Below, piece by piece: positions 2,272-58,630 of a stretch of 64,000 nt of DNA. Position 1 is the stretch's first letter, and every line of letters begins with the position of its first letter. The translations under genes were made by a program, and so were the position numbers. The stretch lies in assembly GCA_016699515.1 (NCBI GenBank), contig CP064978.1:892359-956358 (forward strand). The letters run 5' to 3'. Source of the stretch: Candidatus Peregrinibacteria bacterium. Lineage in GTDB: Bacteria; Patescibacteriota; Gracilibacteria; UM-FILTER-43-11. The notes below the pieces were generated by a model that was not told the DNA's origin, searched no databases, and saw only the letters and a list, made by a program, of their open reading frames with translations.

Positions 2272-2970
2272 CTAATCGAGTTTTTGTCCGATCGGTTTAT
2301 TTGCCTTTGCCACTATTTCCACCTGAGCACTTAAGGGCAATTGATTGACGACTTCCCATTCTACAGTGGGCGTTTGATCACCCCATGCCTCGTTCAATGC
2401 AGCTTCTGCATCTGCTCGATTGACGCTCTTTGGAATATAGACCTGCAATGTATGAACGGAAGCTAGCCCTAATTCAGCCGCCAGAAGCGCCGCACGAATG
2501 TTTTGAATGGTTTGCCGCATTTCAGCCTCCAATCCCCCCTCGACCAAAGCGGGTCTTTCTGATTTAGGATTTAGCCCCACCTGCCCCGACAAATACACCG
2601 GAACTGAATCACTTTCGTCGCCCGCGTTCGTATCATCCCATACGATTACCTGCATGGTCAGATCACCTTGCTCGGGTGCCAAGGCCAAGCGGGCCGGTTT
2701 GTGATCACTAAAGACTTCTGCGTATTTTGCATTCATGGCTGGGTAGCCGCTAATGTCGGGCAAACCCACTTTTACCATTGCCACACGGCTAAGATCTATC
2801 TGTTTTTTTATTTGTTCTAATATTTCAGCAGTTGCTGTGGCAATGTCGGGGTTTGAGGATTCAAAAGTATATGTGCGCTCTTGACCCGGCTTATTCGGGA
2901 CCAAGCCTAACGAATAAGGCCCAACCGCTGCGGGCGCTTCCGTTGAAGTTAAATATCTGAATGTCTCCAT
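2272..2970 (-). CDS. RidA/YjgF-family protein with two RidA-like halves
   Basis: APAAVGPYS motif at the N-terminus. The second half has VYLSGQVGLNP and a RidA-like C-terminal pattern. Confidence 0.6.
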   Translation of the reverse strand: METFRYLTSTEAPAAVGPYSLGLVPNKPGQERTYTFESSNPDIATATAEILEQIKKQIDLSRVAMVKVGLPDISGYPAMNAKYAEVFSDHKPARLALAPEQGDLTMQVIVWDDTNAGDESDSVPVYLSGQVGLNPKSERPALVEGGLEAEMRQTIQNIRAALLAAELGLASVHTLQVYIPKSVNRADAEAALNEAWGDQTPTVEWEVVNQLPLSAQVEIVAKANKPIGQKLD

Positions 2971-3227
2971 GGGGCATTGGTTAACTTATTTGGAGCGCAT
3001 GTTAGTGTTTTTAGGTAGATTTGTCAACCAAGGCCTTTACAAATAGGGTGTGGAACTTTACAATAGCGCCGCCTTAAAAAGCAGCGAGTGAGTGTTTGAA
3101 CTCAAGCCCGGGTGCAAACCTGCGAGCGAAGCGTTTCGGAGCGAAGGCCTCCGAGGCAACGAGGAAACGAAGCGGAGAACAAACATTTGAAAATTGGAGG
3201 AAACAATTTTAAAATGTTTGAGCTTAT

Positions 3228-3635: not shown

Positions 3636-4805
3636 ATGAAAAAACTCATTTCACTTTTTGCCCTGGTAGCTCTTTTGGTTCCTATGGTGGCTTTGGGAGC
3701 AGATTTTCGAGCAGAAGAAGATTTGAAAGTTGATCAGCCAATCCCCGAGGATCTTTACGCCGCGGGTGGCAGTATTCATTTAAACAATGGAATTGACGGT
3801 GATGCTTCTTTGGCGGGCGGTCAAATTATGATCGATAGTGTGATTCGGCAAGATCTGAATGTGGCAGGTGGTCGTATTGATTTTAACGGCCAAGTTGAAG
3901 GTGATGCCCGTCTTACCGGCGGGGAAGTTTTTATTAATGGAACCATTCAGGAGGACCTGATTATTGCAGCCGGTCAGGTTAAAATCACCGCAAACTCGGT
4001 GATTGGAGAAGATTTGGTTTTGGGAGCCGGAAGTCTTGTTTTGGACGGTGTGGTGAATGGGGATGTATTTGGGGGGGCGGGCGAACTAAAAATCAACGGT
4101 ACGGTACGGGGAAATGTTAAATTAATGAGCGTTGATCAACTTTCCTTTGGGCCTAATGGTCGTGTTGAAGGAGATTTGAGTTATCGTGCTTCTAAAGAAC
4201 AGCTGGGCTTTAATGAAAAAGTTGGCGGCACTATTCAATTTGAGCCATCTGTTTGGGGGGATCGTGGCGATTCCACCCACTCTGGTTCCACTTTTACTGT
4301 TCACTCATTTAACTGGTTTCGATTGCTAAGCCTACTCTTCGTTGGATTCTTCTTTCTTTGGTTTTTGCGTCATTATGCAGCCGGGGGAACGGCAAAACTT
4401 AAGGAGCGCCCTTTTTTCAGTTTTTTGATTGGTTTTTTGATTGTATTTGTCACGCCTGTACTGGCCGGGTTTTTTGCCATCACACTCATTGGCCTTCCGG
4501 CAGCTTATTTAATTCTATTAACCTGGCTGATGGCACTTTATGTTGTAAAATTAGCGGCTGCTACCGCTATTGGCTTTTTATTGGTCAAAACAAGTGCTAA
4601 AAAGGATTCTTTTGTGCGCGTTTATCTTTCTTATGCGTTGGGAGCGTTTCTATTTACGCTACTGGCCATGTTGCCCGGTGCTATTGGCTGGTCGCTTCAA
4701 TGGGCACTCGTCTTTGTGGCGATTGGAGGCTTTGCTATGTACGAGCTTGAGTTATTTACTTTCCTTCAAAAAAGATTTAATCTAGCGCATGCCCTACGCC
4801 ATTGA
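3636..4805 (+). CDS. Membrane protein with signal peptide, bactofilin-like beta-helical repeats and a multi-TM C-terminus
   Basis: N-terminal signal-like helix, repeated (D/E)L..AGG.I...G.I.GD units, and about 5 hydrophobic helices at the C-terminus. Confidence 0.6.
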   Translation: MKKLISLFALVALLVPMVALGADFRAEEDLKVDQPIPEDLYAAGGSIHLNNGIDGDASLAGGQIMIDSVIRQDLNVAGGRIDFNGQVEGDARLTGGEVFINGTIQEDLIIAAGQVKITANSVIGEDLVLGAGSLVLDGVVNGDVFGGAGELKINGTVRGNVKLMSVDQLSFGPNGRVEGDLSYRASKEQLGFNEKVGGTIQFEPSVWGDRGDSTHSGSTFTVHSFNWFRLLSLLFVGFFFLWFLRHYAAGGTAKLKERPFFSFLIGFLIVFVTPVLAGFFAITLIGLPAAYLILLTWLMALYVVKLAAATAIGFLLVKTSAKKDSFVRVYLSYALGAFLFTLLAMLPGAIGWSLQWALVFVAIGGFAMYELELFTFLQKRFNLAHALRH

Positions 4806-5580
4806 TACTCATTGCCATATTCATCTAATGCCAGAATCTGAGCGAAAGGCCGTGTTTGACCGTGCGCTTGCGGCCGGGGTTCAAAAACTGATCAATGTGG
4901 CCTGTAGCCTGGAAGACGTGGCCTTATGCCTGCCCATCACGGATCAGATGGACAATGTATGGACCAGTGTTGGCCTGCACCCGACTACCCTGGGTTATGA
5001 TTTGGAAAAGGATTTAGAACGGGTTTACGAAGTGGCTAAGGATGAGCGGAAAGTGGTGGGGATCGGTGAGATGGGGCTCGATTATTACCACAATAAATTC
5101 GACCGTGACACGCAGATTGATTATTTGGTGGGACACTTAAACATAGCCAAACAGCTGGATCTGCCCGCCATCATTCATTGTCGCGCGGGCAAAAATCCCG
5201 GAGAAAACGAATCGGCTTTTTTGGATCTGATTAAGGTGCTAAAAAAGGAACGGTTTTCACGAGCGCAAATTCACTGCTTTAGCGGGAATTTGCGCGAGGC
5301 TGATCAGCTTTTGGAGCTGGGTTGCTATCTTTCATTCACCGGAATTATCACCTATTCACGGAACGAGGAGCTTCGAGACATTGTAAAACGCACGCCGCTC
5401 GACCGCATGTTGATTGAAACCGATAGTCCGTATTTAACGCCCGACGGTCATCGTGGTAAACCTAATGAACCAGCCTATGTAATGGAAGTGGCCAAGACGA
5501 TCGCAACTGTAAAACAATTACCCCTTGAGCACGTTCTTTTGCAGACCAGTACGAATGCGGAGGGGTTTTTTAATATTTAG
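4789..5580 (+). CDS. tatD: TatD-family metal-dependent hydrolase
   Basis: IDTHCHI start, GEMGLDY, IIHCR and ETDSPYL motifs. Confidence 0.85.
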   Translation: MPYAIDTHCHIHLMPESERKAVFDRALAAGVQKLINVACSLEDVALCLPITDQMDNVWTSVGLHPTTLGYDLEKDLERVYEVAKDERKVVGIGEMGLDYYHNKFDRDTQIDYLVGHLNIAKQLDLPAIIHCRAGKNPGENESAFLDLIKVLKKERFSRAQIHCFSGNLREADQLLELGCYLSFTGIITYSRNEELRDIVKRTPLDRMLIETDSPYLTPDGHRGKPNEPAYVMEVAKTIATVKQLPLEHVLLQTSTNAEGFFNI

Positions 5581-5630
5581 GGTGTAGGGTGTAGGGCATA
5601 GTGAGTAGGGCATAGTGAGTAGGGCATAGT
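5581..5630. repeat. Left arm of inverted low-complexity repeat (word GTAGGGCATAGTGA)
   Basis: GGTGTAGGGTGTAGGGCATAGTGAGTAGGGCATAGTGAGTAGGGCATAGT, an imperfect reverse complement of 6027..6075. Confidence 0.8.
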
Positions 5631-5641
5631 TTTGGTTATGC

Positions 5642-6005
5642 CTAATATATTTTTTTGAGCATTGCATTTAGCATTCTCATGATTTCATCAAGTAGTTGCT
5701 CCGATTTAACAAAAAACCTTTCGTCAGACATACTTATTTTTGGCAATGATTATTTGAGTTTCCAGCTCTCCTCCGGATGCAAATGATACTTGCAAAAACT
5801 GCCTATACTGCCTAGTTGTCAGTCTTCTGTAACCTTCAGCTATATTTGACGGAATGGAAACTGAACATCGGCGCATCTGAGACACTAGGCCATACATTTC
5901 TGATTTCGGAAAATTCGCTGTTAACATGTAAATCTCCGAGACTAGTTCGATCGATTTTTGCCAAACAATCAGGCTCTTGTAACTTGAAAATTCACTCATA
6001 TACAA
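5642..6005 (-). CDS. Four-helix-bundle protein (23S rRNA intervening-sequence protein / Avd-like family), one frame break
   Basis: YKSLIVWQKSIELV..., RRCSVSIPSNIAEGY, GELETQIIIAK. The C-terminal SDERFFVKSEQLLDEIMRMLNAMLKKIY is in a second frame, with the break near 5727. Confidence 0.7.
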
Positions 6006-6026
6006 AAAAATAAATTATAAACAAAA

Positions 6027-6075
6027 CTATGCTCTACGAACCACACCCTATGCCCTACTCACTACACCCTACCCC
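6027..6075. repeat. Right arm of the inverted repeat pairing with 5581..5630
   Basis: CTATGCTCTACGAACCACACCCTATGCCCTACTCACTACACCCTACCC. It overlaps the last codons and stop of radA. Confidence 0.8.
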
Positions 6076-7403
6076 CTTATTAATTGCTTCTGCCACCGAC
6101 GATACTTGAGTGACCGATAATTTTGAATTCACCTTCATTGTAGGCATAAGGATTTTTTGAAAACCGAGCTGCTCGCATTCCTTGAGCCGTCTTTCGATCT
6201 GCATTACCGAGCGCACCTCGCCCGAAAGGCCAATTTCCCCCATCACCGCCAGATCGGATGGGAGGGGTTTTTTGAGTTTTGAGCTGGCGATTGCCAAGGC
6301 GACGGCTAGATCGACGGCGGGCTCGGAAAGCTTGAGGCCCCCCACTACATTTACGAACACGTCGGAACTGTCGAGTTTGATTTGGGCATAGCGCTCCAAC
6401 ACGGCCATAATAATATTGAGGCGATTGAGCTCAATTCCGCTGGCGGTACGCTTGGGGTAACCAAAGTGAGTGGCCGAGGTTAGTGCCTGCACTTCGACCA
6501 AAAACGTGCGCGTTCCTTCGAGTACCGGTACCACCACCGAGCCAATTGGGTTCTTAGGGCGTCCTTCCAAAAAGATGGCGGATGGGTTTTTCACACTGAT
6601 CATGCCCTCTTCTTTCATGTCAAATACTCCCACTTCGTCGACCGCACCGAAACGATTTTTGGTGGTGCGGAGCAAGCGGTAATGATGATGGGAATCCCCT
6701 TCTAAAAACAAAACCGTATCGACCAGATGGGTTAGCACTTGGGGGCCGGCCAAATTGCCGTCTTTGTTCACATGGCCAATCAGCAAAACGGGAATCCCTT
6801 GAGATTTGGCTAGCTGCATCAACTGTTCCGCCACGTAACGAACCTGAGAAATAGAACCCGCCTGACTTTCGATATTTTCGCTTTGCATCACCTGGACGGA
6901 ATCGACCACCACAAAGCCGGGTTTTTCGGATTGGATGGTGGCCAAGATCGATTCTAAATGATACGCGTTCATCACATGAATGCCTGACTTTAGCCCTAAT
7001 CTTCGCCCGCGCGAGGCGATTTGTTCGACCGATTCTTCGCCCGAAAAATAAAGCACTTTTCGATCGAGTTTGGCCAGTTCGTTGGCCACCTGGAGCGTGA
7101 GCGTTGATTTTCCGATTCCGGGCAAACCGGCCAGCAAGGTGATCGAGTCGGCCACCAGGCCCCGCCCACCGCCCGGTCGAATTCGTCAATGCCGGTGTTC
7201 AAGCGCTTTTTAGTGATTTCGATCGACTGAATGGTGACTTCGGGCTTCAAAGCCATTGCCGAAATCAGCGGTTTATCATTTTTACCCACATTCACCACAT
7301 CTTCCACCAAGGTGTTCCACTGCTTGCACCCCATACATTGCCCCGACCATCGCGAGGATTCTTGGCTACAATTACTGCAAACGTAGATTGATTTTAGTTT
7401 CAT
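6055..7403 (-). CDS. radA: DNA repair protein RadA (one frame break)
   Basis: N-terminal zinc ribbon CSNCSQ..CMGCKQWNT, Walker A GLPGIGKST and a Lon-like C-terminal domain. The break is in the C4 run 7160..7163; one extra base restores ..AVGGGLVADSITLLAG. Confidence 0.9.
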
Positions 7404-7408
7404 CCTTC

Positions 7409-7442
7409 TTAGTTAAGAGTTAATAATTGAGAGTTAAGAGTT
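7409..7442. repeat. Left arm of inverted repeat (word TAAGAGTTAA)
   Basis: TTAGTTAAGAGTTAATAATTGAGAGTTAAGAGTT. It pairs with 7779..7816 and encodes the C-terminus (..LNSQLLTLN) and stop of the enclosed gene. Confidence 0.8.
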
Positions 7443-7777
7443 GTTTTTTTGATTGCGCCCAGGATGCGTAAAAGCTCTTCGCAGTCTTTGATCAGTACCG
7501 TCACTTTATCCAGGGGTGCCAACTCGGAATCCCTAATCAACCTAAGCCAATAATGGGTTTCTCGAGTTTCTTTGTAAGAAATACATAATTTTGCAATGAA
7601 ATCTTTTCGTGATTGTCCACCAGCAGCCTCCTCTACGTTGGCTCCGATGGATGTACCCGACCTTAAAATCTGTTTTGCAATTATGTATTCTCGTTGCTGA
7701 TGAGCAAGATATTTGTAAAAAGATATTATTTTAAGTGCAAAAAAATAACTTTTTTCTTGAATAATGCTACGTTTCAT
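7409..7777 (-). CDS. Four-helix-bundle protein (23S rRNA IVS protein / Avd-like family)
   Basis: 122 aa with SGTSIGANVEEA and ETHYWLRL motifs typical of this family. Confidence 0.8.
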   Translation of the reverse strand: MKRSIIQEKSYFFALKIISFYKYLAHQQREYIIAKQILRSGTSIGANVEEAAGGQSRKDFIAKLCISYKETRETHYWLRLIRDSELAPLDKVTVLIKDCEELLRILGAIKKTTLNSQLLTLN

Positions 7778-7778
7778 T

Positions 7779-7816
7779 TTAATTCTTAATTATTAACTCT
7801 TAATTCTTAACTAAAG
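7779..7816. repeat. Right arm of inverted repeat pairing with 7409..7442
   Basis: TTAATTCTTAATTATTAACTCTTAATTCTTAACTAAAG. Confidence 0.8.
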
Positions 7817-7910
7817 TAAGTATAGTAAACATTCGTTCACCCGTCAACATTTTTCCTCTAGAATCTAAAATCTAAAATCTATACTCTAGGTAGGTCATTA
7901 AGATTATATT

Positions 7911-13816: not shown

Positions 13817-13860
13817 CTTAGTAGTTAAGAGTTAAGAGTTAATAATTAAGAGTTATTAAC
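13817..13860. repeat. Solo arm of the TAAGAGTTAA word repeat
   Basis: GTAGTTAAGAGTTAAGAGTTAATAATTAAGAGTTATTAAC directly upstream of the rplJ start. It has the same word and orientation as 7409..7442. Confidence 0.7.
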
Positions 13861-14128
13861 AGACTCAAAAAAATCTCGGGCGAGCGCAGCGAGACGTACT
13901 TATTCAAGATTCAAAATTATAACATTCAAGATTAATTTTGAAACGAATTGTATGTCTGCGGGGCTTCTACCCACCTAAGGCGGGATGCCTGCTTTCTGCG
14001 ACGTGACCATTTTACGGATTTAAATGTAGATGTCAAATCTATTTTGCTGTAAGTTGTAGAATGTTAGTAATGCATAGCTCTTTGCATCCTGACAACCGAT
14101 CCTTTATTAATATGTATTTTTAAGTCCA

Positions 14129-15076
14129 GTGAAACATTTTACCGTTGATGACAAAGGAGCAGACCGACGCTTGGATCAGTATTTATCCTCCGTTCGGCCC
14201 GACCTTACCCGTGCCTTCGTTCAAAAGATGATCAAAGGGGGTTCCGTGTTTGTGAATCAGAAAAAAATTACTAAAGCCTCCCATTCAGTACAAAAAGACG
14301 ATGAATTGGTGGTGCTCATCCCTTCGATTAAAGAAGTAGGCATTGTGGCCGAGGATATTCCACTGGACGTTGTTTATGAAGATCACGACATGCTGGTGAT
14401 TAATAAGCCTGCCGGAATGGTGGTGCACCCCACTGATCATGGGTCCCACGTTTCGGGCACATTGGTCAACGCGGTGATGCACTATTGTCATGATAGTTTG
14501 AGTGGCATTGGCGGGGATCGACGCCCCGGCATCGTTCATCGGCTCGATAAACAGACCTCGGGGCTCATTATGGTGGCCAAACACGATGGCGCCCATCGCG
14601 CCCTGGCGCATCAAATCGAATCCCGAAGTATTGTTAAAGAATATATTACCTTGCTTAAGGGGCGCCTTAAGCCGAAAGAAGGCAGCATAGAAGCTCCGCT
14701 GAAAGCTCAACCCAAGGGGGGGCGAACCGACGTGCAAATTTCCAATTCCATCACGGCAAAATACGCTCTCACTCATTATCATGTGCAGGAGTATTTAGGT
14801 GAATACAGCTTGGTTAACGTGCGCATTATTACCGGAAGAACCCATCAAATTCGCGTCCACTTTGCCGCTATTGGCCATCCGGTGGTGGGTGACGAAATGT
14901 ATGGCGACGCCACGACCAATCAAGCGATCGAATCGCTCAGTGGTTTACGGCGCCAATTTTTACATGCGGCTCAGCTGACTTTTCGACTGCCAAAAAACGA
15001 CGAGGAAATTACGCTTACCTCTGAGCTGCCTGATGATCTCAGTCAAACCATTGAAACGTTGAAGGTTGTAAGTTGA
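14129..15076 (+). CDS. rluD: RluA-family 23S rRNA pseudouridine synthase (RluD-like)
   Basis: S4-like N-terminus (RLDQYLS), catalytic HRLDKQTSGL, GRTHQIRVH. Confidence 0.85.
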   Translation: MKHFTVDDKGADRRLDQYLSSVRPDLTRAFVQKMIKGGSVFVNQKKITKASHSVQKDDELVVLIPSIKEVGIVAEDIPLDVVYEDHDMLVINKPAGMVVHPTDHGSHVSGTLVNAVMHYCHDSLSGIGGDRRPGIVHRLDKQTSGLIMVAKHDGAHRALAHQIESRSIVKEYITLLKGRLKPKEGSIEAPLKAQPKGGRTDVQISNSITAKYALTHYHVQEYLGEYSLVNVRIITGRTHQIRVHFAAIGHPVVGDEMYGDATTNQAIESLSGLRRQFLHAAQLTFRLPKNDEEITLTSELPDDLSQTIETLKVVS

Positions 15077-15126
15077 AGGTTGTAAGTATCGATTTTCCTA
15101 CAACATAAAACTTGCAACTTACAACA
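15058..15126. repeat. Low-complexity hairpin (word GGTTGTAAG) overlapping the rluD stop
   Basis: GTTGTAAGTTG (15065..15075) pairs perfectly with CAACTTACAAC (15115..15125). The left arm encodes the rluD C-terminus ..LKVVS and its stop. Confidence 0.7.
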
Positions 15127-15467: not shown

Positions 15468-15505
15468 CTTTAGTTAGGAGTTAAGCGTTTATAATTAAGA
15501 GTTAG
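15468..15505. repeat. Solo arm of the TAAGAGTTAA word repeat between rplS and rplU
   Basis: CTTTAGTTAGGAGTTAAGCGTTTATAATTAAGAGTTAG. It contains the rplS stop codon (15495..15497) and its last codons. Confidence 0.65.
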
Positions 15506-25305: not shown

Positions 25306-25876
25306 TTATCCACTCACACACATGGCTGGAGTAAGTGAGTTAGGAATTTGACAGCCTCCGTCGGTGTTGAATACTTCTACTCCTTCTGAAATTACATAAA
25401 CACGTGCGACGGTTCCGGTGGTGTCTTGGCACACATGATATCCGGTTCCCCGCTGCATTGTAGGTGCTGGTGTTGGGGTCTACAGGGATTTCTCGCAAGT
25501 AGTCGGGAATTAACACGGTGGAGCAATCAAAGGTGGAGTTTCCAGCGGGAGTTCCTAATTCTACTGCCCCTTCAAACGCACCTGTTCCAGCGCTAGCGCC
25601 ACTTAAATCTGGATCACATTCAGGAATAGCGGTTAAGGTGGGAGTGGCCCCCAATAAACAGCGTGGTAATGCTCCGCGAGCCGTAGGCGACGTTTGGAAT
25701 TGGTAAATAGCGCTTAAAATGGTTCCGATCTCTGACTTGCGTTCAGAGTCGTTTGCTTTACCGAACTGGCGGGCAGGATTGACTGCCACCAACACAATTC
25801 CAGCCAAGATTGATATGATCCCAATAACGATCAAAAGTTCGATCAGGGTGAAGCCTTTACGGTTGGTAGTTTTCAT
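25306..25876 (-). CDS. Type IV pilin (prepilin N-terminal methylation motif), one frame break
   Basis: KGFTLIELLIVIGIISILAG. The C-terminal Cys-containing part ..TGYHVCQDTTGTVARVYVISEGVEVFNTDGGCQIPNSLTPAMCVSG is in another frame, with the break at C4 25447..25450. Confidence 0.75.
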
Positions 25877-25896
25877 TGTAAATGGGTTAGTTATGT

Positions 25897-25942
25897 AAAA
25901 GCCTCGGCGTTCCTTGATTTCTTGAGGATAGGCCGAGGCTTT
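25897..25942. terminator. Hairpin between the two pilin genes (possible attenuator or terminator)
   Basis: AAAAGCCTCGGC (25897..25908) pairs with GCCGAGGCTTTT (25931..25942). Confidence 0.5.
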
Positions 25943-25959
25943 TATAAATCTACAAACGA

Positions 25960-26543
25960 TTATCCTGATACACACATGGCCGGAGTGGTGGTTCCAGGAA
26001 CTTCACAACCACCATCGGTATCGAATACTTCTACTCCTCTGGCAATCACATAAACACGAGAAACTCCTCCGGAAGTTGCTTGACAAACGTAGTATCCGGT
26101 CGCAGCAGTGCTGTAGGTATTGGTGTTTGGATCCACTGGGATTTCACGTAGGTAATCGGGAACCAAGGTGGTGCTGCAATCATAAGTGGCTGCTGTTACG
26201 GGCGAACCCAATTGTACTGCACCTTCGAAGCCCCCATTTCCGCTTCCAACACCGCTGTTATCTGGATCGCATTGAGGAATGGCAGTAGCGGTTCCTGGTG
26301 CAACCCCAACAAACATTGAGGCAATGCGCCACGAGCCGTGGGCGAGGTTTGGAATTGATAAATAGCACTCAGGATGGTGCCGAGTTCAGATTTGCGTTCT
26401 GAATCGTTTGCTTTACAGAACTGCTGAGCAGGATTAACTGCAACCAGAACGACTCCGGCAAGAATGGAAATAATACCGATCACAATCAAAAGCTCAATAA
26501 GAGTGAACCCTTTGGAGCGGTTAGGCAAAACATTTTTAAGCAT
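25960..26543 (-). CDS. Type IV pilin paralog (one frame break)
   Basis: KGFTLIELLIVIGIISILAG. ORFs 26196..26543 and 25960..26316 join at C4 26305..26308. It has the same C-terminal PAMCVSG end as the neighbouring pilin. Confidence 0.75.
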
Positions 26544-34099: not shown

Positions 34100-35856
34100 T
34101 TACGTTTTGATAACACGCACCACTTCTTCCAAACTGGTTACGCCCGAGAGCGCTTTGAAAATTCCGTCTTCCAACATGGTGTTCATTCCATTTTCGATAG
34201 CAACCGCTTCAATTTCGTCCGCACTTGCTTGTTTAAGAATGGTTTTTTTAATTGCTTCGTTCATTTCCATGACTTCGTAAAGACCAATTCGGCCTTTGTA
34301 TCCGGTTTGCCCACACGCTTTGCAACCGATTCCTTTATAAAAATAATAGTTGTCTTTAAATTGCAGCGTTTCCAGCTCTTGGTCGGAATAGATTTTTTTA
34401 CTCATTTTTTTGATCAACTCAACCATGTTTTTGTTGTTGTAGATCATGTTGAGCGTTTCGGCATTGTACACTTTGGTTTCGACGCATTGCGTACACACTT
34501 TGCGCACCAACCGTTGGGCGATCATGCAGTTGATGGCCGCCGTGAGCAAAAAGGGTTCAATTCCCATTTCGACCAAGCGCGGAATTCCCACCGCGGTACT
34601 ATTGGCATGCAACGTGGAAAACACCATATGCCCTGTCATCGCCGATTCCACACCAATTTGAGCGGTTTCCTGATCACGAATTTCCCCCACCAAAATATCG
34701 TCGGGATCCTGACGCAACAATGCGCGTAGTCCGTTGGCAAAGGTAAGGTTGGTGGCGTGATTCACTTGTACCTGATTGATACCGTCGATCCCGTATTCGA
34801 TTGGATCTTCGATGGTTGCCACATTGATTTCGGGCGAATTGATCAATTCAATCACATTGTAAAGCGTCGTGGTTTTTCCCGATCCGGTGGGCCCGGTTAC
34901 GATCAACATTCCATACGGTTTGGTGGAATTAGCGATTACTTTTTTGTAATCCGTTTCACTCAATCCGGATTCTCTGAGTCCTACCGAGTCTTCCAGTTCC
35001 ACCAAAATACGCATCACGATTTTTCCCCAAAGTGAGTCGGTAAAATGGACACACGAAATGACACGGAATCGTTATCGAGTTTTAAGTTGATACGACCGTC
35101 CTGAGCGGCACGGGTTTCGTCGATGCGCAAGCTGGATAAAATCTTACATCGGGTTACCAAAGGCTCATGAATGATTTTAGGTAAATTAACAATTTTATGC
35201 AGCACTCCATCGATCCGATAGCGAATGACGGTGTACTGTTTGGTGGCTTCAATGTGTATATCGGACGCGTGGTGACGGTAAGCATGCAACAAGATGGTGT
35301 CAAAAATCTTTACGATCGGAATTTCTTCACTAATGTTGTTAATGATCGCTTCGGATACTTTTTCATCCGGCTTTAGAAAACGAATGTGTTCCGGGAGCAT
35401 GTTCAAAAAAATGTGCTTCAGCTCCTGATTGTATTTTCCGATGATGTTCTTAATATTGCTGGTGGTGGTGTAATACACCTCAGCTTCTCGCCCGGTTTTC
35501 TTTTCCAGATCACTGATCATTTCCAGGTCGAGCGGATTGACGGTCGCGATTTTAATAATGTTCTTTTCCTCGTTCACTTCGAACGTAATCACCCCTTGCT
35601 TAAGGGCGATGTTTTCGGGAACGATTTCGAGCACCTCATTGGGAATTTGAATTTTGGAAAGATTGATGTAAGGGTAGCCTAAAATATCCGCTACCATTTT
35701 TCCTAAAATTTCATCCGCCACAATGTGCCGTTTTTGCAAGGTTTCAAAAAACGGACTTCGGGATTGCCTGGCTTCATCCAGTGTGGACTGGATCAGATCT
35801 TCGGATATTCCCTTTAACCGAAGGGCTTCGATGAGTTTGTTTTCTGGAATCATCAT
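34100..35856 (-). CDS. pilB: Type IV pilus assembly ATPase PilB (one frame break)
   Basis: GspE N-terminal domain, Walker A GPTGSGKTTT, and Cys motifs CTQC..CKAC. Adding one base to T5 35020..35024 gives ..PTHFGEKIVMRILVE. Confidence 0.9.
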
Positions 35857-40728: not shown

Positions 40729-40775
40729 AAAAATTACGAATTCACAATGACGAATTACGAATTTTTTCGTAATCG
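40729..40775. repeat. Low-complexity region (word ATTACGAAT) with a small hairpin
   Basis: AAAAATTACGAATTCACAATGACGAATTACGAATTTTTTCGTAATCG between the folD stop and the purF start. Confidence 0.65.
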
Positions 40776-43013: not shown

Positions 43014-46000
43014 TTGGGTATGGGTTCAGTTGCCTTAAAGCACGGGTTTAGACCTAAAATGGCTTTGATCATTGGGTTTTTTGGCGTGCTGGCCAGCGCA
43101 TTGCTGGTTTCGACCGCCGAACAAGCCGGTACTACGTTTTCACTGACCGCCAATACGGTTCCGGTTGGGCAGTACCCCACCACACTCACTTTGGACATTG
43201 ACCCCAATGCCGAGAGCGCCGGGCTTTTAGGAGCCGAAGTGCATCTCAGCTATGATCCCAATTTACTTTCGATTCAGTCGATTTCTACCAATTGCGGCTT
43301 TAATAGCTGTCTTGATTTTTCGGAATCCGGCACGCTCAAGTTTTTGGGAGCTTCGGGATTGCAGCAAGATGGTGGCCAGATACTCACCACGACTCAAACG
43401 TTCGCCACACTTCAAATTTTAGCTGCTCAAAGCAGTACCCTTACTTTTAGCAAATGTTCCATCATCACCAACCAGGCTTCGTTGGCAACGTGCACGGCAC
43501 TGCCTTTTACGATCCAGGCGAACGGCACCGTTTCGACTTCTTGTGGGAACGCTACCTTGGACACCGGTGAAACGTGTGACGACGGCAATACGGTGAATGG
43601 CGATGGTTGCAGCAGTGTGTGTGCTTTGGAAACCGGTGGAGGAATGTGTGGAAATTCCGCGGTGGACACCGGTGAAACGTGTGACGATGGCAATACGGTG
43701 AATGGCGATGGTTGCAGCAGTGTGTGTGCTTTGGAAATTTGCGGCAATGGTATTTTGAATTTTGGAGAACAGTGTGACGATGGAAACCAAATTGACACCG
43801 ACAGCTGCACGAATACTTGTACCAACACTTCATTGGTGCTGGAAAATCCGATTTGTGGAAATTTGGTGATTGAAGGAAGTGAACAATGTGATGATGGAAA
43901 CGATTTGGCCGGCGACGGCTGCAATCAACAATGTTTGTTAGAAGTGATACGAAGAGAAGTGGCTTTGGACTTTTTGACGTTTAAAACGGTGAGTGGGGTT
44001 AAGAGCGCCTTGGTGGGCAAAACCCTTCCGCTGATCACCAATGCCCATTTTACGGATGAGAGCGTCCAAAACATCACCCAACTTGAAGGTGTGATTTATT
44101 CCAGCTCCAAACCAACTGTTGCCACCATTGAACAAGGGAATTTGATTACCAAGCGCAAAGGAACGACGACATTTTTTGTGAGCTATAGCACCGGTGGAGT
44201 GACTCGCAATGCGCAGTTTAGCTTTACGGTCACCGAACCTGCCCCCGAACCCGTTCCGGTGGCGCCCGTTGAACCAGTGAAAGAACCTGAAACTCCACCC
44301 GTAGTAGAAGCTCCGCCCCAAGAAGATCCATCGAATGAACCGCTTAGACCCGCCGCGCATTCACTGACCGAAGGTGAACTGGGTGCGATTGCTTCCGCCT
44401 CGGAAGTGGTGGAATCCGGTGCGTTTGTGGATCAATTTCAACTTGATCTGCCCGACTCCACTCAAACCATCGACCATCAAATTGAATCGTGCACCGGGAA
44501 TGGTTATTTTAAAGGCATCGATCTTTCTACGCTCATTGGTGATGCGGACGGTGATGGTCTTACCGATCGATCGGAATGTTACGTAGGCACGAATCCACGC
44601 TCGTATGATACCGATCGGGATGGATGCAGCGACGGAGAAGAGGTGAACTTGCTTGCCACCAATCCCACGCGAGCGGGAGATTGTGATGCAAAAGCAGAAT
44701 CGGAAGCGGAACCTATCAAGCCCATGGTTTCTATCACCGATCCCCAACAAGGATGGATTGTGCGCAGCAACACGCCGCGGTTAGCCGGAGTGGTCAGCCG
44801 CAACGCGACTCAGGTGGAATTGGTTGCCTTTCATGCTGATCAGTCCGCCCTGGCCGCCTTAAAAAAAGTGGCTGAACAATTGGCGGCCGATCCGCGAGCC
44901 GACCTGGCGAGCAGCTTAATGGATGAACTGGACAATCGCATAAAACAGCTGAACGCGTTTTGGCTGGAGAATGGAGACTTTTTTGACTATGGCTCACTCA
45001 ATACTTTAATTCGCCGCGTGAGCGATATTGCCACTCAGAATGGCGCAATGGGGTGATTGAAAACGGCGACACTGCAGCGATTCAAGAAGGTGCGACTGCG
45101 ATCCTTGATTTGGTCAATCCCGCGCTTTTGAACCCGATTTATCTTGGTAAAACTCAGGAGTTTTCTGAAACGTTTGTAGGTGAAAAGAAATTGAATCGCT
45201 TTGAAATTAATGCTTTCGAGCTGCAAGATCAAAAGGTGTACAACTTGGTTGCAATTGCCACTTACGAAGATGGAACCACTTTAAAATCGGCCGCTGTTTC
45301 TTTTGGAGTTAATGAAGGCTTGGGCGTTAACGCGCCGGACCCACGCACCCTGGATAACGTACCGATTGAGTCCGATCAACTTAACTTTAGTTGGATTCCC
45401 GGGGCTTATGCACAATCCGACTCCCTCATTCGCATTCATCAGACCCAACCGGTGATTGAAGGCGATTCGGAGTTTGGCACGCAAGTGTATGCCATTTGGA
45501 ATAGTTTGGTTTTGGCTTCATCGGTTATTTCGGATAGTGAGGAGGGCTTCTTTTCGATCAAGGCCCCGCAGGCTTTGGAAGGTGGATCACTTCATCGTGT
45601 GAGCTTGTACGCCTTAAAACGTGTGGGCAATAAGGTGATTCGTTCCGATACGGTCGATGTGCATTTTGAAGTGGCTCCCGCTGCCTTGAGTGTATTGAAT
45701 GTATCGCTCGCCCTTGGCGTGCTGGCCCTTTTGATCGCGATTTATTGGATCGTTCGTCGAGTGCTCATGCGCCGAAAATCATCGTTGAATCCTGATGACT
45801 TGTTGCCCGAGGAAGGGCGTGTGGAACGTGTGCTGCATACCTACGACCATTCCATTGCCAGTTTTTCTCCACTGCCTACTCATCCGCAACCCTTGGTGTT
45901 TCCGGCCGCTCCTTCTCCTTTTCCGGTTACAAAACCGGCTGCTCCGTCGGCAACGCCCGTTGCCTCCTCGCTGATTTCACCGTTCCCCTTACTACTGCCG

Positions 46001-47390: not shown

Positions 47391-47533
47391 GGTCACTGCC
47401 GAGTCACTGGATCACTAGGTCACTCGCTTCGCTTGATCACTAGATCACAAAATTATTAATTATTTTTTGCCCCAGTGATCAAGTCCCGATGATCATCGGG
47501 ACGAGTGATCCAGTGAAGAAGTGATCCAGTGAC
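47391..47533. repeat. 143-nt low-complexity palindrome (word GTGATCCAGTGA / TCACTGGATCAC)
   Basis: The left arm carries tandem GTCACTG/GATCACT words and the right arm their complements. The inner perfect palindrome is CCCGATGATCATCGGG. It abuts the nadB stop. Confidence 0.75.
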
Positions 47534-49850: not shown

Positions 49851-49971
49851 AATTACGAATACACAAATTACAAACAAATTCAAATACTTAAATACCAAAT
49901 AATTTAAAACTTAAAATTTGAAATTGGTTATTTGGTATTGCTTGTGATTTGTGTATTGGGTATTCGTAATT
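49851..49971. repeat. 121-nt imperfect AT-rich hairpin (word ATTACGAAT), no ORF
   Basis: AATTACGAATACACAAATTACAAACAA...AAATACCAAATAA pairs with TTATTTGGTATT..GTGATTTGTGTATTGGGTATTCGTAATT, in the divergent tsaD-lgt intergenic region. Confidence 0.75.
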
Positions 49972-55001: not shown

Positions 55002-55078
55002 TAATTACGAATGACGAATTACGAATGACGAATGACGAATTATGAATTACGAATTATGAATTACGAATGACGAATTAA
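55002..55078. repeat. Tandem degenerate heptamers GAATTAC/GAATGAC (word ATTACGAAT), single arm
   Basis: TTAATTACGAATGACGAATTACGAATGACGAATGACGAATTATGAATTACGAATTATGAATTACGAATGACGAATTAATA. It contains the stop codon of the cNMP-binding gene. Confidence 0.75.
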
Positions 55079-55651: not shown

Positions 55652-58546
55652 TTGAATAAAATAATTGTAAAAGGGGCTCGCGCCCATAATTTAAAGAACG
55701 TCGATGTAGAAATTCCACGCGATCAACTCGTGGTTTTAACCGGCCCTTCGGGCTCGGGCAAATCGTCGCTCGCGTTTGATACGATCTACGCCGAAGGTCA
55801 ACGCAGGTATGTGGAAAGTTTGAGCACCTACGCGCGCCAGTTTTTACAATTGATGGAAAAACCCGATGTGGATTCGATTGAAGGTCTTTCGCCCGCTATT
55901 TCGATCGACCAAAAAACCGCCAGCCGCAATCCACGTTCAACCGTAGGAACGGTGACTGAGATTTATGATTATTTACGCCTTTTGTTTGCCAAGGTTGGCA
56001 CGCCTCATTGCCCTGAATGCAATCGATTGATTCAACGTCAATCAGCAAGCCAAATGGTGGATATTATTGCCGACATGCCCGAAGGCAAACGCTTTATGCT
56101 TTTGTCCCCTATCATTAAAGATCGAAAAGGATCGCACGAAAAAGTGATCGAAAAAATCAGAAAAGATGGTTTTGTGCGCTTCCGTGTGAATGGAACTATT
56201 TATACCGTCAATGAAACAGTTGCCTTGGATCCCAAAAAAAAGCATAGCATCGAAATTGTGGTCGATCGCTTGGTGGTGCGCGATTTAAAGAAAAAATGGG
56301 TCACGCTTCAATCGGGCGAAACCGTTGAAGAAAAAAATGAAGATCGTTCGCGCTTGGCTGATTCCCTTGAAACTGCTTTGCGATACGGCGAAGGCATGAT
56401 TAAGGTGGTGGATGCCGATACGAATGAAGAAGAGCTTTTTTCGGAAAATTTTGCCTGCGACCACTGCAACATTTCCATCCCCGAAATTCAGCCTCGCTCG
56501 TTCAGCTTTAATTCGCCCCATGGGGCATGTGAGGATTGTCATGGCCTGGGAACCAAGCAAAAAATCAATCCCGATTTGGTGATGCCTAACCCCAAACTTA
56601 CCATTGCCGAGGGAGCAATTTTGCCTTGGTCGAATTCGTCCATGCGGCTGAATTGGTACAATGGACTTTTAAAAGAGGTGGGCAAAAAACACGGATTCAG
56701 TATCGATACGCCGATCGGCAAGCTGACCGATGAACAAGTGCGACTGATCCTTTATGGCACTGGCGAAGAAACCTATCGCACCCATTACAGCTCGCAACAC
56801 AACAGTCATGAATACACCACCACGTTTGAAGGCGTCATTCCCAATTTGGAGCGGCGCTATCACGAGTCCGAATCGGATTACGTGCGGCATAACATTGAAC
56901 GTTTTATGGAAGAACTGGCCTGCGAAAGCTGTGGTGGACAACGGCTTAAGCGCGAGGCGCTGAGCGTTCAAATCGATCAAAAGTCCATCATTGATGTGAC
57001 CGAGTTTTCCGTGGAGCAGGCGCAAGCATTTTTTGCCAAATTCAAACCTGAACATCCCGATTACTCTTTGAATGATTCCCAATACGCCATTTCGAAATTG
57101 ATCATTCAGGAAATTTCAAATCGCCTGGAGTTTTTGAACAATGTGGGGCTTTCTTATTTAACGCTCAGTCGGGCGGCTAATACCCTTTCGGGCGGAGAAG
57201 CACAACGCATTCGCTTGGCCACTCAAATTGGCTCATCCCTTCAGGGAGTGCTTTATGTTTTGGATGAGCCGTCGATCGGATTGCATCAGCGTGATAACGA
57301 TCGCCTGATTAAAACCATGGAGAATTTACGTGATTTGGGCAATACCGTTTTGGTGGTGGAACATGACGAGGATACGATCAATGCCGCCGATTATGTACTG
57401 GATATCGGTCCGGCTGCCGGAAAACATGGAGGCTATGTGGTGGCAGCGGGAACCGCTGAAGAGATCAAGCAAAATAAACAATCGATCACCGGTGATTATT
57501 TATCGGGACGGAAACAGATTGAAATTCCGGCCAAGCGCCGCAAGGGCAGCAACCATTTTTTAGAGATACTAGGTGCCGAGGAACACAACCTTCGCAAGGT
57601 GAATGTGAAGATTCCTTTGAACTGTTTTATTGGCGTGACCGGTGTATCGGGCTCGGGAAAATCGTCATTGATCAATCATATTTTGTGCCCGGTGCTCAAC
57701 ACCAAGCTCAACCGTGCCAAGCAACGCGCCGGAAAACATGAGGCGATTAAAGGCATTGAACACTTGGACAAAATCATTAACATTGATCAATCCCCCATTG
57801 GCCGTACTCCCCGCAGTAACCCTGCCACCTACACCGGAGTGTTTACGAATATTCGCGAACTGTTTGCCTCAACCAGCGAGGCGCAATTGCGTGGCTACAA
57901 AGAAGGGCGCTTTAGTTTTAATGTAAAAGGCGGCCGTTGTGAATCGTGCAAAGGAGACGGGATTGTGAAAATTGAAATGCACTTTCTACCGGATATTTAT
58001 GTGCCTTGCGAAATTTGTAAAGGCAGACGCTACAATGCCGAAGCGCTGGAAATTACCTGGAGGGGCAGCAACATTGCCGACGTTCTGGACATGACGGTGA
58101 ACGAAGCGCTGGAAGCCTTTGAAAGCATTCCACAAATCAAGAGCAAATTGGAAACCTTGCAAGATGTGGGATTGGGATACATTCACTTGGGTCAGAGCGC
58201 CACCACGCTTTCGGGTGGAGAGGCTCAGCGGGTCAAGCTGGCTACCGAGCTGGCTAAACGTGCTACCGGCCGCACCATTTATGTGTTGGATGAACCCACC
58301 ACCGGGCTTCATTTTGACGACGTTAAAAAACTGCTGAATGTACTTCAGGCCTTGGTAGATAAAGGAAATACGGTGCTGACCATCGAACACAATTTGGATG
58401 TGATCAAGTCGGTGGATTATGTGATCGATTTAGGGCCCGAAGGTGGCACCGGGGGCGGCAACATTGTATGCACCGGTACGCCCGAAGAAGTGGCCAAGCA
58501 CAAAGAAAGCCACACCGGACGCTATTTGGCGAAAATGCTTCTTTAA
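55652..58546 (+). CDS. uvrA: Excinuclease ABC subunit A
   Basis: 964 aa with two ABC ATPase modules (GPSGSGKSS, GVSGSGKSS), zinc-finger Cys clusters and LSGGEAQR signatures. Confidence 0.95.
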   Translation: MNKIIVKGARAHNLKNVDVEIPRDQLVVLTGPSGSGKSSLAFDTIYAEGQRRYVESLSTYARQFLQLMEKPDVDSIEGLSPAISIDQKTASRNPRSTVGTVTEIYDYLRLLFAKVGTPHCPECNRLIQRQSASQMVDIIADMPEGKRFMLLSPIIKDRKGSHEKVIEKIRKDGFVRFRVNGTIYTVNETVALDPKKKHSIEIVVDRLVVRDLKKKWVTLQSGETVEEKNEDRSRLADSLETALRYGEGMIKVVDADTNEEELFSENFACDHCNISIPEIQPRSFSFNSPHGACEDCHGLGTKQKINPDLVMPNPKLTIAEGAILPWSNSSMRLNWYNGLLKEVGKKHGFSIDTPIGKLTDEQVRLILYGTGEETYRTHYSSQHNSHEYTTTFEGVIPNLERRYHESESDYVRHNIERFMEELACESCGGQRLKREALSVQIDQKSIIDVTEFSVEQAQAFFAKFKPEHPDYSLNDSQYAISKLIIQEISNRLEFLNNVGLSYLTLSRAANTLSGGEAQRIRLATQIGSSLQGVLYVLDEPSIGLHQRDNDRLIKTMENLRDLGNTVLVVEHDEDTINAADYVLDIGPAAGKHGGYVVAAGTAEEIKQNKQSITGDYLSGRKQIEIPAKRRKGSNHFLEILGAEEHNLRKVNVKIPLNCFIGVTGVSGSGKSSLINHILCPVLNTKLNRAKQRAGKHEAIKGIEHLDKIINIDQSPIGRTPRSNPATYTGVFTNIRELFASTSEAQLRGYKEGRFSFNVKGGRCESCKGDGIVKIEMHFLPDIYVPCEICKGRRYNAEALEITWRGSNIADVLDMTVNEALEAFESIPQIKSKLETLQDVGLGYIHLGQSATTLSGGEAQRVKLATELAKRATGRTIYVLDEPTTGLHFDDVKKLLNVLQALVDKGNTVLTIEHNLDVIKSVDYVIDLGPEGGTGGGNIVCTGTPEEVAKHKESHTGRYLAKMLL

Positions 58547-58630
58547 ATTACTTATTATCAATTATTTATTACTTATTAACTGCTCGTTCAAATTCCCTGC
58601 CAGTTAATAAGTAATGGTTAATAAGTAATT
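58547..58630. repeat. Low-complexity hairpin (word TTAATAAGTAA) between convergent uvrA and the PP2C gene
   Basis: CTTATTAACTG (58572..58582) pairs perfectly with CAGTTAATAAG (58601..58611). The arms extend with tandem TTACTTATTA words, and the right arm contains the PP2C stop. Confidence 0.75.

Follow-up and report, generated by a model that had tools for sequence, protein, structure and literature searches.

What kind of element is formed when a small gene for a four-helix-bundle (4HB) protein is enclosed between the two arms of an inverted repeat? The question is raised by a 64,000-nt stretch of the genome of a Candidatus Peregrinibacteria bacterium (contig CP064978.1, positions 892,359 to 956,358; hereafter the window), in which two such units lie on the minus strand to either side of radA, the second cassette at 7409-7816 and the first cassette at 5578-6082. 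A previous sequence-only reading of this DNA had ascribed to the two units the same organisation with unrelated arm sequences, and had pointed to the Avd accessory proteins of diversity-generating retroelements (DGRs) as members of the same family. The shared organisation was borne out, as inverted heptamer arrays surround both genes and the words differ. The closest precedent, absent from that reading, is the intervening sequence of 23S rRNA and not a DGR. We place at about one half the probability that the second cassette is an intervening-sequence-type hairpin cassette outside rRNA, in which a PF05635 gene and inverted TA-anchored heptamer arrays make up one inherited unit inside a host transcription unit. 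What appears to be new is the occurrence of such cassettes in mRNA spacers, as a very widespread architecture.

Heptamer arms around the two 4HB genes at radA

The gene of the second cassette (7409..7777, minus strand) encodes a protein of 122 amino acids, which belongs to the subfamily termed c2-type here and was identified by matches in Pfam, TIGRFAM and PDB. It scored 85.1 bits against PF05635 (23S_rRNA_IVP; cut-off 33.8, E 4.6e-24) and 99.6 bits against TIGR02436 ("four helix bundle protein"; cut-off 24, E 1.1e-28), and its residues 1-115 matched PDB entry 2RLD, which contains five chains, with an E value of 1.5e-28. The protein has the length of about 110-130 residues and the solved four-helix-bundle relative that are expected of the family. 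Relatives sharing 58-67% identity were found in many phyla.

The upstream arm, at 7779..7816 of the minus strand, was detected in inverted-repeat pairs and by Tandem Repeats Finder (TRF) with a period of 7 and 4.6 copies. Read in the sense of the gene, it consists of the five heptamers TTAGTTA AGAATTA AGAGTTA ATAATTA AGAATTA, followed by a single A and the ATG, the array stopping 1-2 nt short of the start codon. The downstream arm (7409..7442, minus strand), likewise an inverted repeat and a TRF array of period 7 with 4.6 copies, reads AACTCTT AACTCTC AATTATT AACTCTT AACTAA in the same sense, and 5 nt (GAAGG) separate it from the ATG of radA. TRF gave AGTTAAG and TTAATTC as consensus words. 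The two arms can pair in two registers, one of 34 nt between 7409-7442 and 7781-7814 with 79% complementarity, and one of 25 nt between 7413-7437 and 7779-7803 with 92%.

Enclosure of the gene by an arm and its imperfect complement had been proposed before, and both the coordinates and the sequences hold. The same is true of the proposal that the arm encodes the C-terminus of the protein, since the final 11 codons and the stop of the open reading frame (ORF) (..TTLNSQLLTLN*) lie within 7409-7442. In the orthologous cassette of the related locus L082 the ORF terminates at the first TAA of the arm (..KTLNS*). The codon at this place is CAA in the window, and the tail QLLTLN is therefore a read-through into the arm. 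A scan of the window with Rfam revealed three tRNAs only, and thus the arms are covered by no known RNA family.

The feature is real, statistically robust and not a product of chance. Arm complementarity was scored by comparing the upstream flank of a gene with the reverse complement of its downstream flank, and 216 ordinary ORFs from comparison loci served as controls (median 16, 95th percentile 22, 99th percentile 27.7). The second cassette scored 40. A 25-nt module of its arm gave 7 matches at 4 loci of the window, against none in 100 shuffles. Period-7 arrays numbered 11 in the window and 0.53 in dinucleotide shuffles, with periods 4-6 and 8-12 at chance level; these counts come from a gentler detector run with shuffle controls, and a stricter threshold gave 3 period-7 arrays. 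The window therefore contains intergenic heptamer repeats in the usual sense, with at least three tandem units and an over-represented period. Minimum-free-energy folding of the RNA paired the arms as the closing stem in both cassettes, with energies of -105.8 kcal/mol for the second (z -4.6) and -160.7 kcal/mol for the first (z -6.3); in neither case was any of 100 shuffles as stable.

The first cassette carries a 4HB gene of the c1-type subfamily at 5642..5999 of the minus strand. Its product matches PF05635 with an E value of 2e-30, over profile positions 1-81 of 106 only, and PDB entry 2GSC (XCC0516) with an E value of 4e-20. The ORF is broken near 5730 by a 1-nt frameshift, giving 92 amino acids and then ..SDERFFVKSEQLLDEIMRMLNAMLKKIY* in another frame. 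BLASTP revealed no similarity between the two 4HB proteins of the window. The upstream arm (6027..6082, minus strand; TAGGGTG TAGTGAG TAGGGCA ...) was found in inverted-repeat pairs and by TRF, and the downstream arm (5578..5630, minus strand) as an inverted repeat and by TRF. Taken in full, the inverted repeat spans 5574-5652 and 6004-6082, 79 nt with 72% complementarity, and its words (GTAGGGC/GTGAGTA) are unrelated to those of the second cassette. The upstream arm carries the last 8 codons and the TAG stop of radA (..KGVGCSE*), and the first heptamer of the downstream arm holds the TAG stop (5578-5580, plus strand) of the convergent tatD. The arms are stop barriers in all reading frames; they terminate the gene they enclose and, around the first cassette, also radA and tatD.

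The radA gene itself (6055..7403, minus strand) houses the second cassette in its 5' leader and enters the first cassette with its 3' end. A 1-nt frameshift, located in a run of G/C near 7160-7175, splits it into two ORFs (6996-7403 and 6055-7155); Pfam recognised Zn_ribbon_LapB in the N-terminal ORF and AAA_25/ChlI in the C-terminal one. Intact RadA orthologs have 434-471 amino acids, and the homologs belong to Peregrinibacteria-like bacteria of the candidate phyla radiation (CPR), the best match being 77% identical. A third gene of the window, for a type II/IV secretion ATPase (T2SSE), is also frameshift-split (34100-35017 and 35014-35856). On this single contig of 1.34 Mb, the single-base frameshifts, at least that of radA, look like homopolymer errors of long-read sequencing and not real pseudogenes.

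Flanking arms across the protein family

The sequence-only reading would have fallen had other copies of the gene lacked flanking inverted repeats. We collected 80 loci with relatives of the second-cassette protein from species genomes (c2 set) and 80 with relatives of the first-cassette protein from metagenomes (c1 set), and scored 156 cassettes, comprising 80 in the c2 set (78 loci and the two window cassettes) and 76 in the c1 set. The cassettes sampled span more than 12 phyla. Those of the c2 set include KSB1, Bacteroidota, Desulfobacterota, Nitrospirota, Verrucomicrobiota/Lentisphaerae, Planctomycetota, Chloroflexota and Cyanobacteria, and further Ignavibacteria, Balneolaceae, Gemmatimonadota, Acidobacteriota, Gammaproteobacteria and several CPR lineages. 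The upstream flanks consist of (AATTACG/AATTAGG/AATTAAG)n or (TAGGGTA/TAGCGTT/TAGGCAC)n, with the complement downstream.

Inverted repeats proved to be general. Flank complementarity exceeded the control 95th percentile in 133 of the 156 cassettes (70/80 in c2, 63/76 in c1) and the 99th percentile in 120. The median scores were 40.5 (c2, n=80) and 32 (c1, n=76), compared with 16 in the 216 controls, and the c2 set differed from the controls with a Mann-Whitney p of 8e-32. The two arms of a cassette also share a word, as the Hamming distance between the upstream word and the reverse-complemented downstream word was 0.85 in c2 against 1.72 for permuted pairings, and 1.16 against 2.82 in c1; no permutation in either set gave a mismatch as low as that observed.

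The cassettes are packed tightly into their surroundings. The neighbour shares the strand of the cassette in 118/134 cases on the upstream side and in 113/140 on the downstream side, and the median spacing is 45 nt between the previous stop and the cassette ATG and 31 nt between the cassette stop and the start that follows, leaving space for the arms and nothing else. This layout shows that the cassettes depend on host transcription units. The median arm array measures 24-32 nt, equal to 3.5-4.5 units. The stop codon of the cassette gene falls within the downstream array in 35/68 and 33/56 cassettes of the two sets, and the ATG follows within 10 nt of the upstream array in 26/59 and 20/41.

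Two word families were found, TA[CGA]GAAT in the c2 clade and TAG[GC][GC][TA]N in the c1 clade, and both are present in the genome of the window. Common to them are the 7-nt period and an almost invariant TA anchor, with T and A at word positions 1 and 2 in 107 and 118 of 127 c2 words and in 87 and 92 of 97 c1 words. Words containing AATT made up 108/127 in c2 and 5/97 in c1 (Fisher p 1e-36). Within the clades, protein identity correlated with word distance, the Spearman coefficients being -0.47 (permutation p 0.001) and -0.21 (p 0.002). Co-variation of arm word with protein clade, the check that the sequence-only reading had proposed, was thus confirmed.

These word constraints open a second explanation, namely that the 4HB oligomer, a pentameric ring in crystals, would bind the TA-anchored arrays with one protomer per heptamer. 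RNA or single- or double-stranded DNA would be bound; a cassette's own arrays would serve autoregulation, and solo arrays before radA, rplJ and rplU would be targets in trans. The inverted layout would then have arisen as a by-product, or would let the arrays switch from a stem to a protein-bound state. Among ring proteins, the reading of spaced triplets has precedents, as HutP binds UAG-N4-UAG-N4-UAG and TRAP binds spaced GAG/UAG triplets. We regard such recognition as a tentative possibility, compatible with the intervening-sequence-type cassette. The words are constrained beyond what pairing needs in their period of 7 and their TA at positions 1-2, word families are clade-specific and both occur in one genome, and protein similarity tracks word similarity within clades. 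In addition, the median array has 3.5-4.5 units and the crystal entries contain five chains, and XCC0516 is cited as a homopentameric toroid (PMC4990558). However, co-variation of word and clade is also expected from plain joint inheritance of arms and gene, and the comparison of clades is confounded by host taxonomy and by sampling, with c2 drawn from genomes and c1 from metagenomes.

Comparison with the 23S rRNA intervening sequence

The intervening sequence in the 23S rRNA of Coxiella burnetii contains an S23p (PF05635) ORF (PMC4990558). It ends in inverted repeats that form a 28-bp stem, it carries 3-4 tandem GACAGAT heptamers just ahead of the ATG, their number varying between strains, and RNase III cleaves it in vitro at the first heptamer (PMC4990558). 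S23p intervening sequences of this kind are also found in Leptospira, in Brucella and in the Xanthomonas type, and rRNA insertions of CPR bacteria likewise contain 23S_rRNA_IVP and GIY-YIG ORFs. The Coxiella element and the second cassette each enclose a PF05635 ORF between inverted repeats that close a long stem, have heptamers running up to the ATG, and travel on a host transcript without a promoter of their own. They differ in that the Coxiella element sits in helix 45 of 23S rRNA, whereas the hosts here are mRNAs (the radA leader, and the 3' ends of radA and tatD for the first cassette). The word GACAGAT is different, and the arms in the window also supply the stops of the cassette gene and of host genes. 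The second cassette thus shows a PF05635 ORF in terminal inverted repeats that close the fold and tandem heptamers before the ATG, and it lies between a promoter and radA, in a window where Rfam recognises tRNAs only. Since every sequence-level feature is present and the rRNA location is absent, we file it as a variant, not a member, of the intervening-sequence kind.

The transcript that would carry the cassette can be outlined. A promoter scan revealed a sigma-70-type promoter, TTGACG-17-TATACT, at 7819..7847 of the minus strand (10/12 consensus matches). Its spacer holds the SOS-box-like palindrome GAACGAATGTTTAC (7825-7838), which has the form GAAC-N4-GTTyAC between -35 and -10 and is similar to a LexA (Cheo-type) box. 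The pattern has this single match in the 64-kb window, and uvrA (55652-58546) has none. Six related genomes (L081-L086) share the block TTGACnnGTGAACnnnnGTTyACTAtAmT ahead of the radA slot. Transcription is predicted to start near 7812, at the first heptamer, or outer edge, of the upstream arm, so that a radA mRNA starting there would open with arm, 4HB ORF and arm, the ORF being looped out. Neither a promoter nor a terminator belongs to the cassette itself. Another heptamer array, (TCTAAAA) x3.6 at 7857-7888, framed by CCTCTAGA...TCTAGG, lies in the spacer that separates the radA/4HB promoter from the divergent nadE.

Based on these features, we propose the following course for the intervening-sequence-type cassette. 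Driven by the SOS-box-like radA promoter, transcription would begin at the outer boundary of the upstream arm. The RNA would then cross the five heptamers, the 4HB ORF, the complementary heptamers and, 5 nt on, the radA ribosome-binding site, in the order read from the DNA. In the computed fold the arms would pair as an imperfect duplex of about 34 bp with the ORF looped out. This duplex may be a substrate of RNase III, as in Coxiella; cleavage would free the cassette RNA and leave a radA mRNA with a short processed leader.

The downstream arm has counterparts elsewhere in the window. A solo module of the form (CTTAACT)n-CTAAGAAA-ATG lies directly upstream of rplJ (13823..13855, minus strand) and is 80% identical over 41 nt to 7405-7445; the rplJ product matches Pfam Ribosomal_L10, and no 4HB gene and no convincing partner arm were found at the module. 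An ATTCAAG array nearby (13902-13933) did not pair with it in the fold. A pattern search revealed a second solo copy directly upstream of rplU (15479..15503, minus strand), between rplS (L19) and rplU (L21), whose product matches Ribosomal_L21p. Common to the second-cassette downstream arm, rplJ and rplU is a module of about 41 nt made of heptamers and CTAAGAAG-ATG, which may be a shared 5'-leader element. The sequence-only reading had mentioned neither this module before the two ribosomal-protein genes nor the tandem-heptamer build of the second-cassette arms. Under recognition by the protein, the 25-nt module before rplJ and rplU would be read in trans.

Several points weigh against the intervening-sequence-type cassette. 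The arm module stands alone before rplJ and rplU, without a partner arm. The Coxiella ORF seems untranslated and decaying, whereas the non-rRNA 4HB family is well conserved. The RNase III step is put forward purely by analogy. Mismatches in 119 arm alignments comprised 68 of the G.U type and 82 of the A.C type in the sense RNA and thus showed no asymmetry, and 311 of 461 arm mismatches were transversions. With no excess of G.U, the complementarity could be kept at the DNA level or through concerted evolution of quasi-palindromes, and we therefore do not claim covariation as proof of RNA structure. Furthermore, pairing alone leaves the strict 7-nt period, the TA anchor and the clade-specific words shared across phyla unexplained. 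The intervening-sequence, protein-reading and DNA-exchange models are not mutually exclusive.

The pointer to Avd called for a different comparison, in which the cassette gene would be a remnant or stand-alone DGR accessory gene. PF05635 is the Pfam family that most often adjoins DGR reverse transcriptases, and it resembles bAvd (PMC10053308). The bAvd proteins, which are small and basic, share the four-helix-bundle superfamily fold and assemble as pentamers, and the first-cassette protein matches the bAvd model PF22296 weakly (24.1 bits). That score is below the cut-off of 40, however, and the second-cassette protein has no match to the model. bAvd depends on a reverse transcriptase next to it and on a template/variable repeat pair, and heptamer arms have not been described for Avd genes, nor are they a DGR feature. 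The Pfam scan revealed no reverse transcriptase (RVT) domain in the approximately 46 ORFs of the window, in agreement with what had been noted before, and none was found next to the gene in seven orthologous loci. Five families of direct repeats of at least 40 nt were detected in the window, none of them DGR-like or near the cassettes. The remark on Avd is accordingly true of the Pfam superfamily and does not apply to the second-cassette gene. With no reverse transcriptase, no repeat pair and no bAvd match above threshold, a DGR at this locus was ruled out, and descent of the gene from one as an accessory gene is highly improbable.

Slot turnover, solo arrays and published heptamer repeats

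Seven related Peregrinibacteria-like loci (L036 and L081-L086) retain the promoter, radA and tatD, and both slots between them vary. The slot between promoter and radA holds orthologous c2-type 4HB genes with AGTTAAG arms in the window and in L082. Different 4HB clades occupy it in L083 (word AGTGCTG), L085 (GATTAAC), L086 (GAGCTTA) and L036 (AATTACG). In L081 a GxxExxY/PDDEXK_3 gene (TIGR04256) lies there between inverted repeats (2470-3000), and L084 has a hairpin only, built of arms of the L081 type. In the slot between radA and tatD, the window and L083 share c1-type 4HB genes with GTAGGxx arms, 54% identical, whereas L082, L084 and L086 (about 4320-4720) carry a GIY-YIG gene in a 33-nt inverted repeat, and L081 has a plain terminator hairpin. 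The arms of the GIY-YIG genes, TTTTGTCATTCCGACCGAAGCGGAGGAATCCCT, are not heptameric. In L082 and L084 the GIY-YIG copy was not called as a gene and is interrupted by in-frame stops, and it looks decayed. As different small genes occupy each slot, the slots are hot spots with turnover of cassettes at fixed sites, and we infer that this proceeds by homologous exchange through the conserved flanks or arms. The findings suggest a wider class of hairpin-bracketed small genes. Among viral contigs no relatives of the GxxExxY and GIY-YIG genes were found, and tblastn of the fetched loci returned the known copies only; the extension to those families therefore stays anecdotal.

Turnover of this kind raises the question of mobility at the DNA level, with the arms as terminal inverted repeats or hairpins for a recombinase or transposase acting in trans, or, in a variant, as short homology for recombination into existing heptamer hairpins, the RNA stem being incidental. 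We consider this unlikely, although several observations are in line with it. The same slot takes different cassettes, and the empty hairpin of L084 has the arms of the filled L081. Gene-less heptamer hairpins occur in the window (15058-15125 and 58547-58629) and in the loci L013, L031 and L057. The arm mismatches show no strand asymmetry, c2-type proteins of about 60% identity across many phyla suggest horizontal transfer, and the copy number of the arrays differs between close relatives (L006 and L009; the Coxiella strains). However, no target-site duplication was found outside the arms, the cassettes are not accompanied by a transposase or recombinase, and catalysis is not known of the 4HB fold. 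Near-identical copies are missing, the two window cassettes are unrelated and orthologous cassettes are 54-58% identical (RadA about 75%), so recent transposition is not seen. Homologous exchange through conserved neighbour genes explains the slot turnover without mobility encoded by the element. The usual marks of a transposon with terminal inverted repeats or of a miniature element, a target-site duplication and several near-identical copies, are thus both absent.

Known small elements resemble the cassettes in part. With repetitive extragenic palindromic (REP) sequences and bacterial interspersed mosaic elements (BIME), with miniature inverted-repeat elements and with the Neisseria minimal mobile elements they share short intergenic inverted repeats that fold into hairpins, and a fixed slot flanked by conserved genes that takes up alternative small cassettes in different strains. 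The cassettes are unlike REP/BIME and the others in their clade-specific heptamer words, in the conserved gene enclosed, and in having no target-site duplication and no partner transposase such as a REP-associated tyrosine transposase (RAYT).

Hairpins without a gene also occur in the window. The one at 15058-15125 is built of GTTGTAA, that at 58547-58629 is likewise heptameric, an 8-mer hairpin lies at 47404-47532, and further heptamer hairpins lie at 49860-49960 and 40732-40770. Their sites are gene ends and convergent spacers, such as the end of a pseudouridine synthase gene, the spacer that separates uvrA from the gene of a SpoIIE-type phosphatase, and the folD/purF spacer, and they look like empty cassettes. 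In addition, a solo array of (AATTACG/AATGACG) x10.7 occupies the spacer (55003-55077) between a DUF3307 gene and a gene with a cNMP-binding domain; AATTACG is the commonest arm word of c2-type cassettes in other phyla. Two longer repeats of the window are of another kind, a tandem duplication at 25342-26513 (period about 655 nt, 74-78% identity) across the ORFs 25340-25975 and 25960-26543, and a 105-nt repeat at 43542-43737 inside a DUF4215 / TSP3-repeat protein gene.

Solo arrays bear directly on whether the 4HB proteins read heptamers in trans. In 595 kb of flanks from 140 comparison loci, 108 further period-7 arrays were detected, whose words lay at a mean distance of 1.54 from the local cassette word, compared with 2.48 from the cassette words of other loci, and 52% were within one mismatch of the local word compared with 21% for the others (locus-level permutation p 5e-4). 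This closeness to the local word argues for recognition. On the other hand, some of the flank arrays may belong to unrecognised paralogous cassettes, and neither the AATTACG x10.7 array nor the GTTGTAA hairpin has a cognate 4HB gene within the 64 kb.

Heptamer repeats have been described in several bacteria. GGGAATC repeats form 70-75 convergent pairs in Xanthomonas, with 186 occurrences of the heptamer in the Xcc genome, and GGGGA(C/T)T is found in Nostoc (PMC4692102). TAACTGA repeats occur in Beggiatoaceae, cyanobacteria and Bacteroidetes, mostly just before start codons (PMC4679880), and CspB, as cited there, binds heptamer repeats with one protein per heptamer. These published repeats, including the short tandemly repeated repetitive (STRR) sequences of cyanobacteria, are like the arms in that they comprise 2-14 tandem heptamers, are intergenic and often form convergent inverted pairs, frequently end just before a start codon, and vary in length between close relatives. 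They are unlike the arms in that they have been treated as G-quadruplex or translational elements and that most enclose no gene. The terms 4HB, S23 and 23S-intervening-sequence protein are absent from the texts of PMC4692102 and PMC4679880. In the full-text literature, with most subscription journals outside its coverage, no link of non-rRNA PF05635 genes to heptamer arms was found.

A direct connection was found in Xanthomonas. The orthologs of XCC0516 in three loci (L167-L169, about 1430-1875) lie between accB and accC, in an essential operon. Their upstream flank reads GGGAATC GGGAGTG GAGAATC GGGAATC, and their downstream flank, directly before the accC ATG, reads CCCATTC CCCATTC TCGACTC CCTATTC. 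The published Xanthomonas repeats thus include at least one pair that forms the arms of a 4HB cassette. Because XCC0516 is flanked by repeats found genome-wide, this suggests that 4HB proteins may read heptamer arrays, and it adds to the evidence for recognition.

The coupling joins two puzzles. PF05635/TIGR02436 is among the most abundant small families of unknown function, with at least 7998 relatives and two crystal structures, and its role is known only as the Avd of DGRs. For the reported enrichment of heptamer repeats in bacteria there is no accepted explanation (PMC4692102, PMC4679880). In more than 12 phyla the protein family and the repeats occur physically joined, in the layout of the Coxiella intervening sequence, and both can be tested. 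For annotation, the arms give stop codons and odd C-terminal tails to cassette and neighbour genes, and the same slots are hot spots of replacement among small genes (4HB, GxxExxY, GIY-YIG). A large CRISPR discovery screen names "23S rRNA IVP" among the abbreviations explained for a figure of CRISPR-linked proteins (PMC10910872), and repeated arms around 4HB genes might contribute to associations of this sort.

In its broadest form, which we hold to be doubtful, the idea would be that PF05635 proteins are the missing trans partners of bacterial heptamer repeats, including GGGAATC in Xanthomonas, STRR/GGGGAYT in cyanobacteria, TAACTGA in Beggiatoaceae, AATTACG in Bacteroidota and others. Each ring would read arrays of its own word. 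The arrays of its own cassette would mediate autoregulation, and solo arrays, such as those before radA, rplJ and rplU, would form a transcriptional or post-transcriptional regulon. The intervening sequences of rRNA would then represent a special insertion site of the same cassettes.

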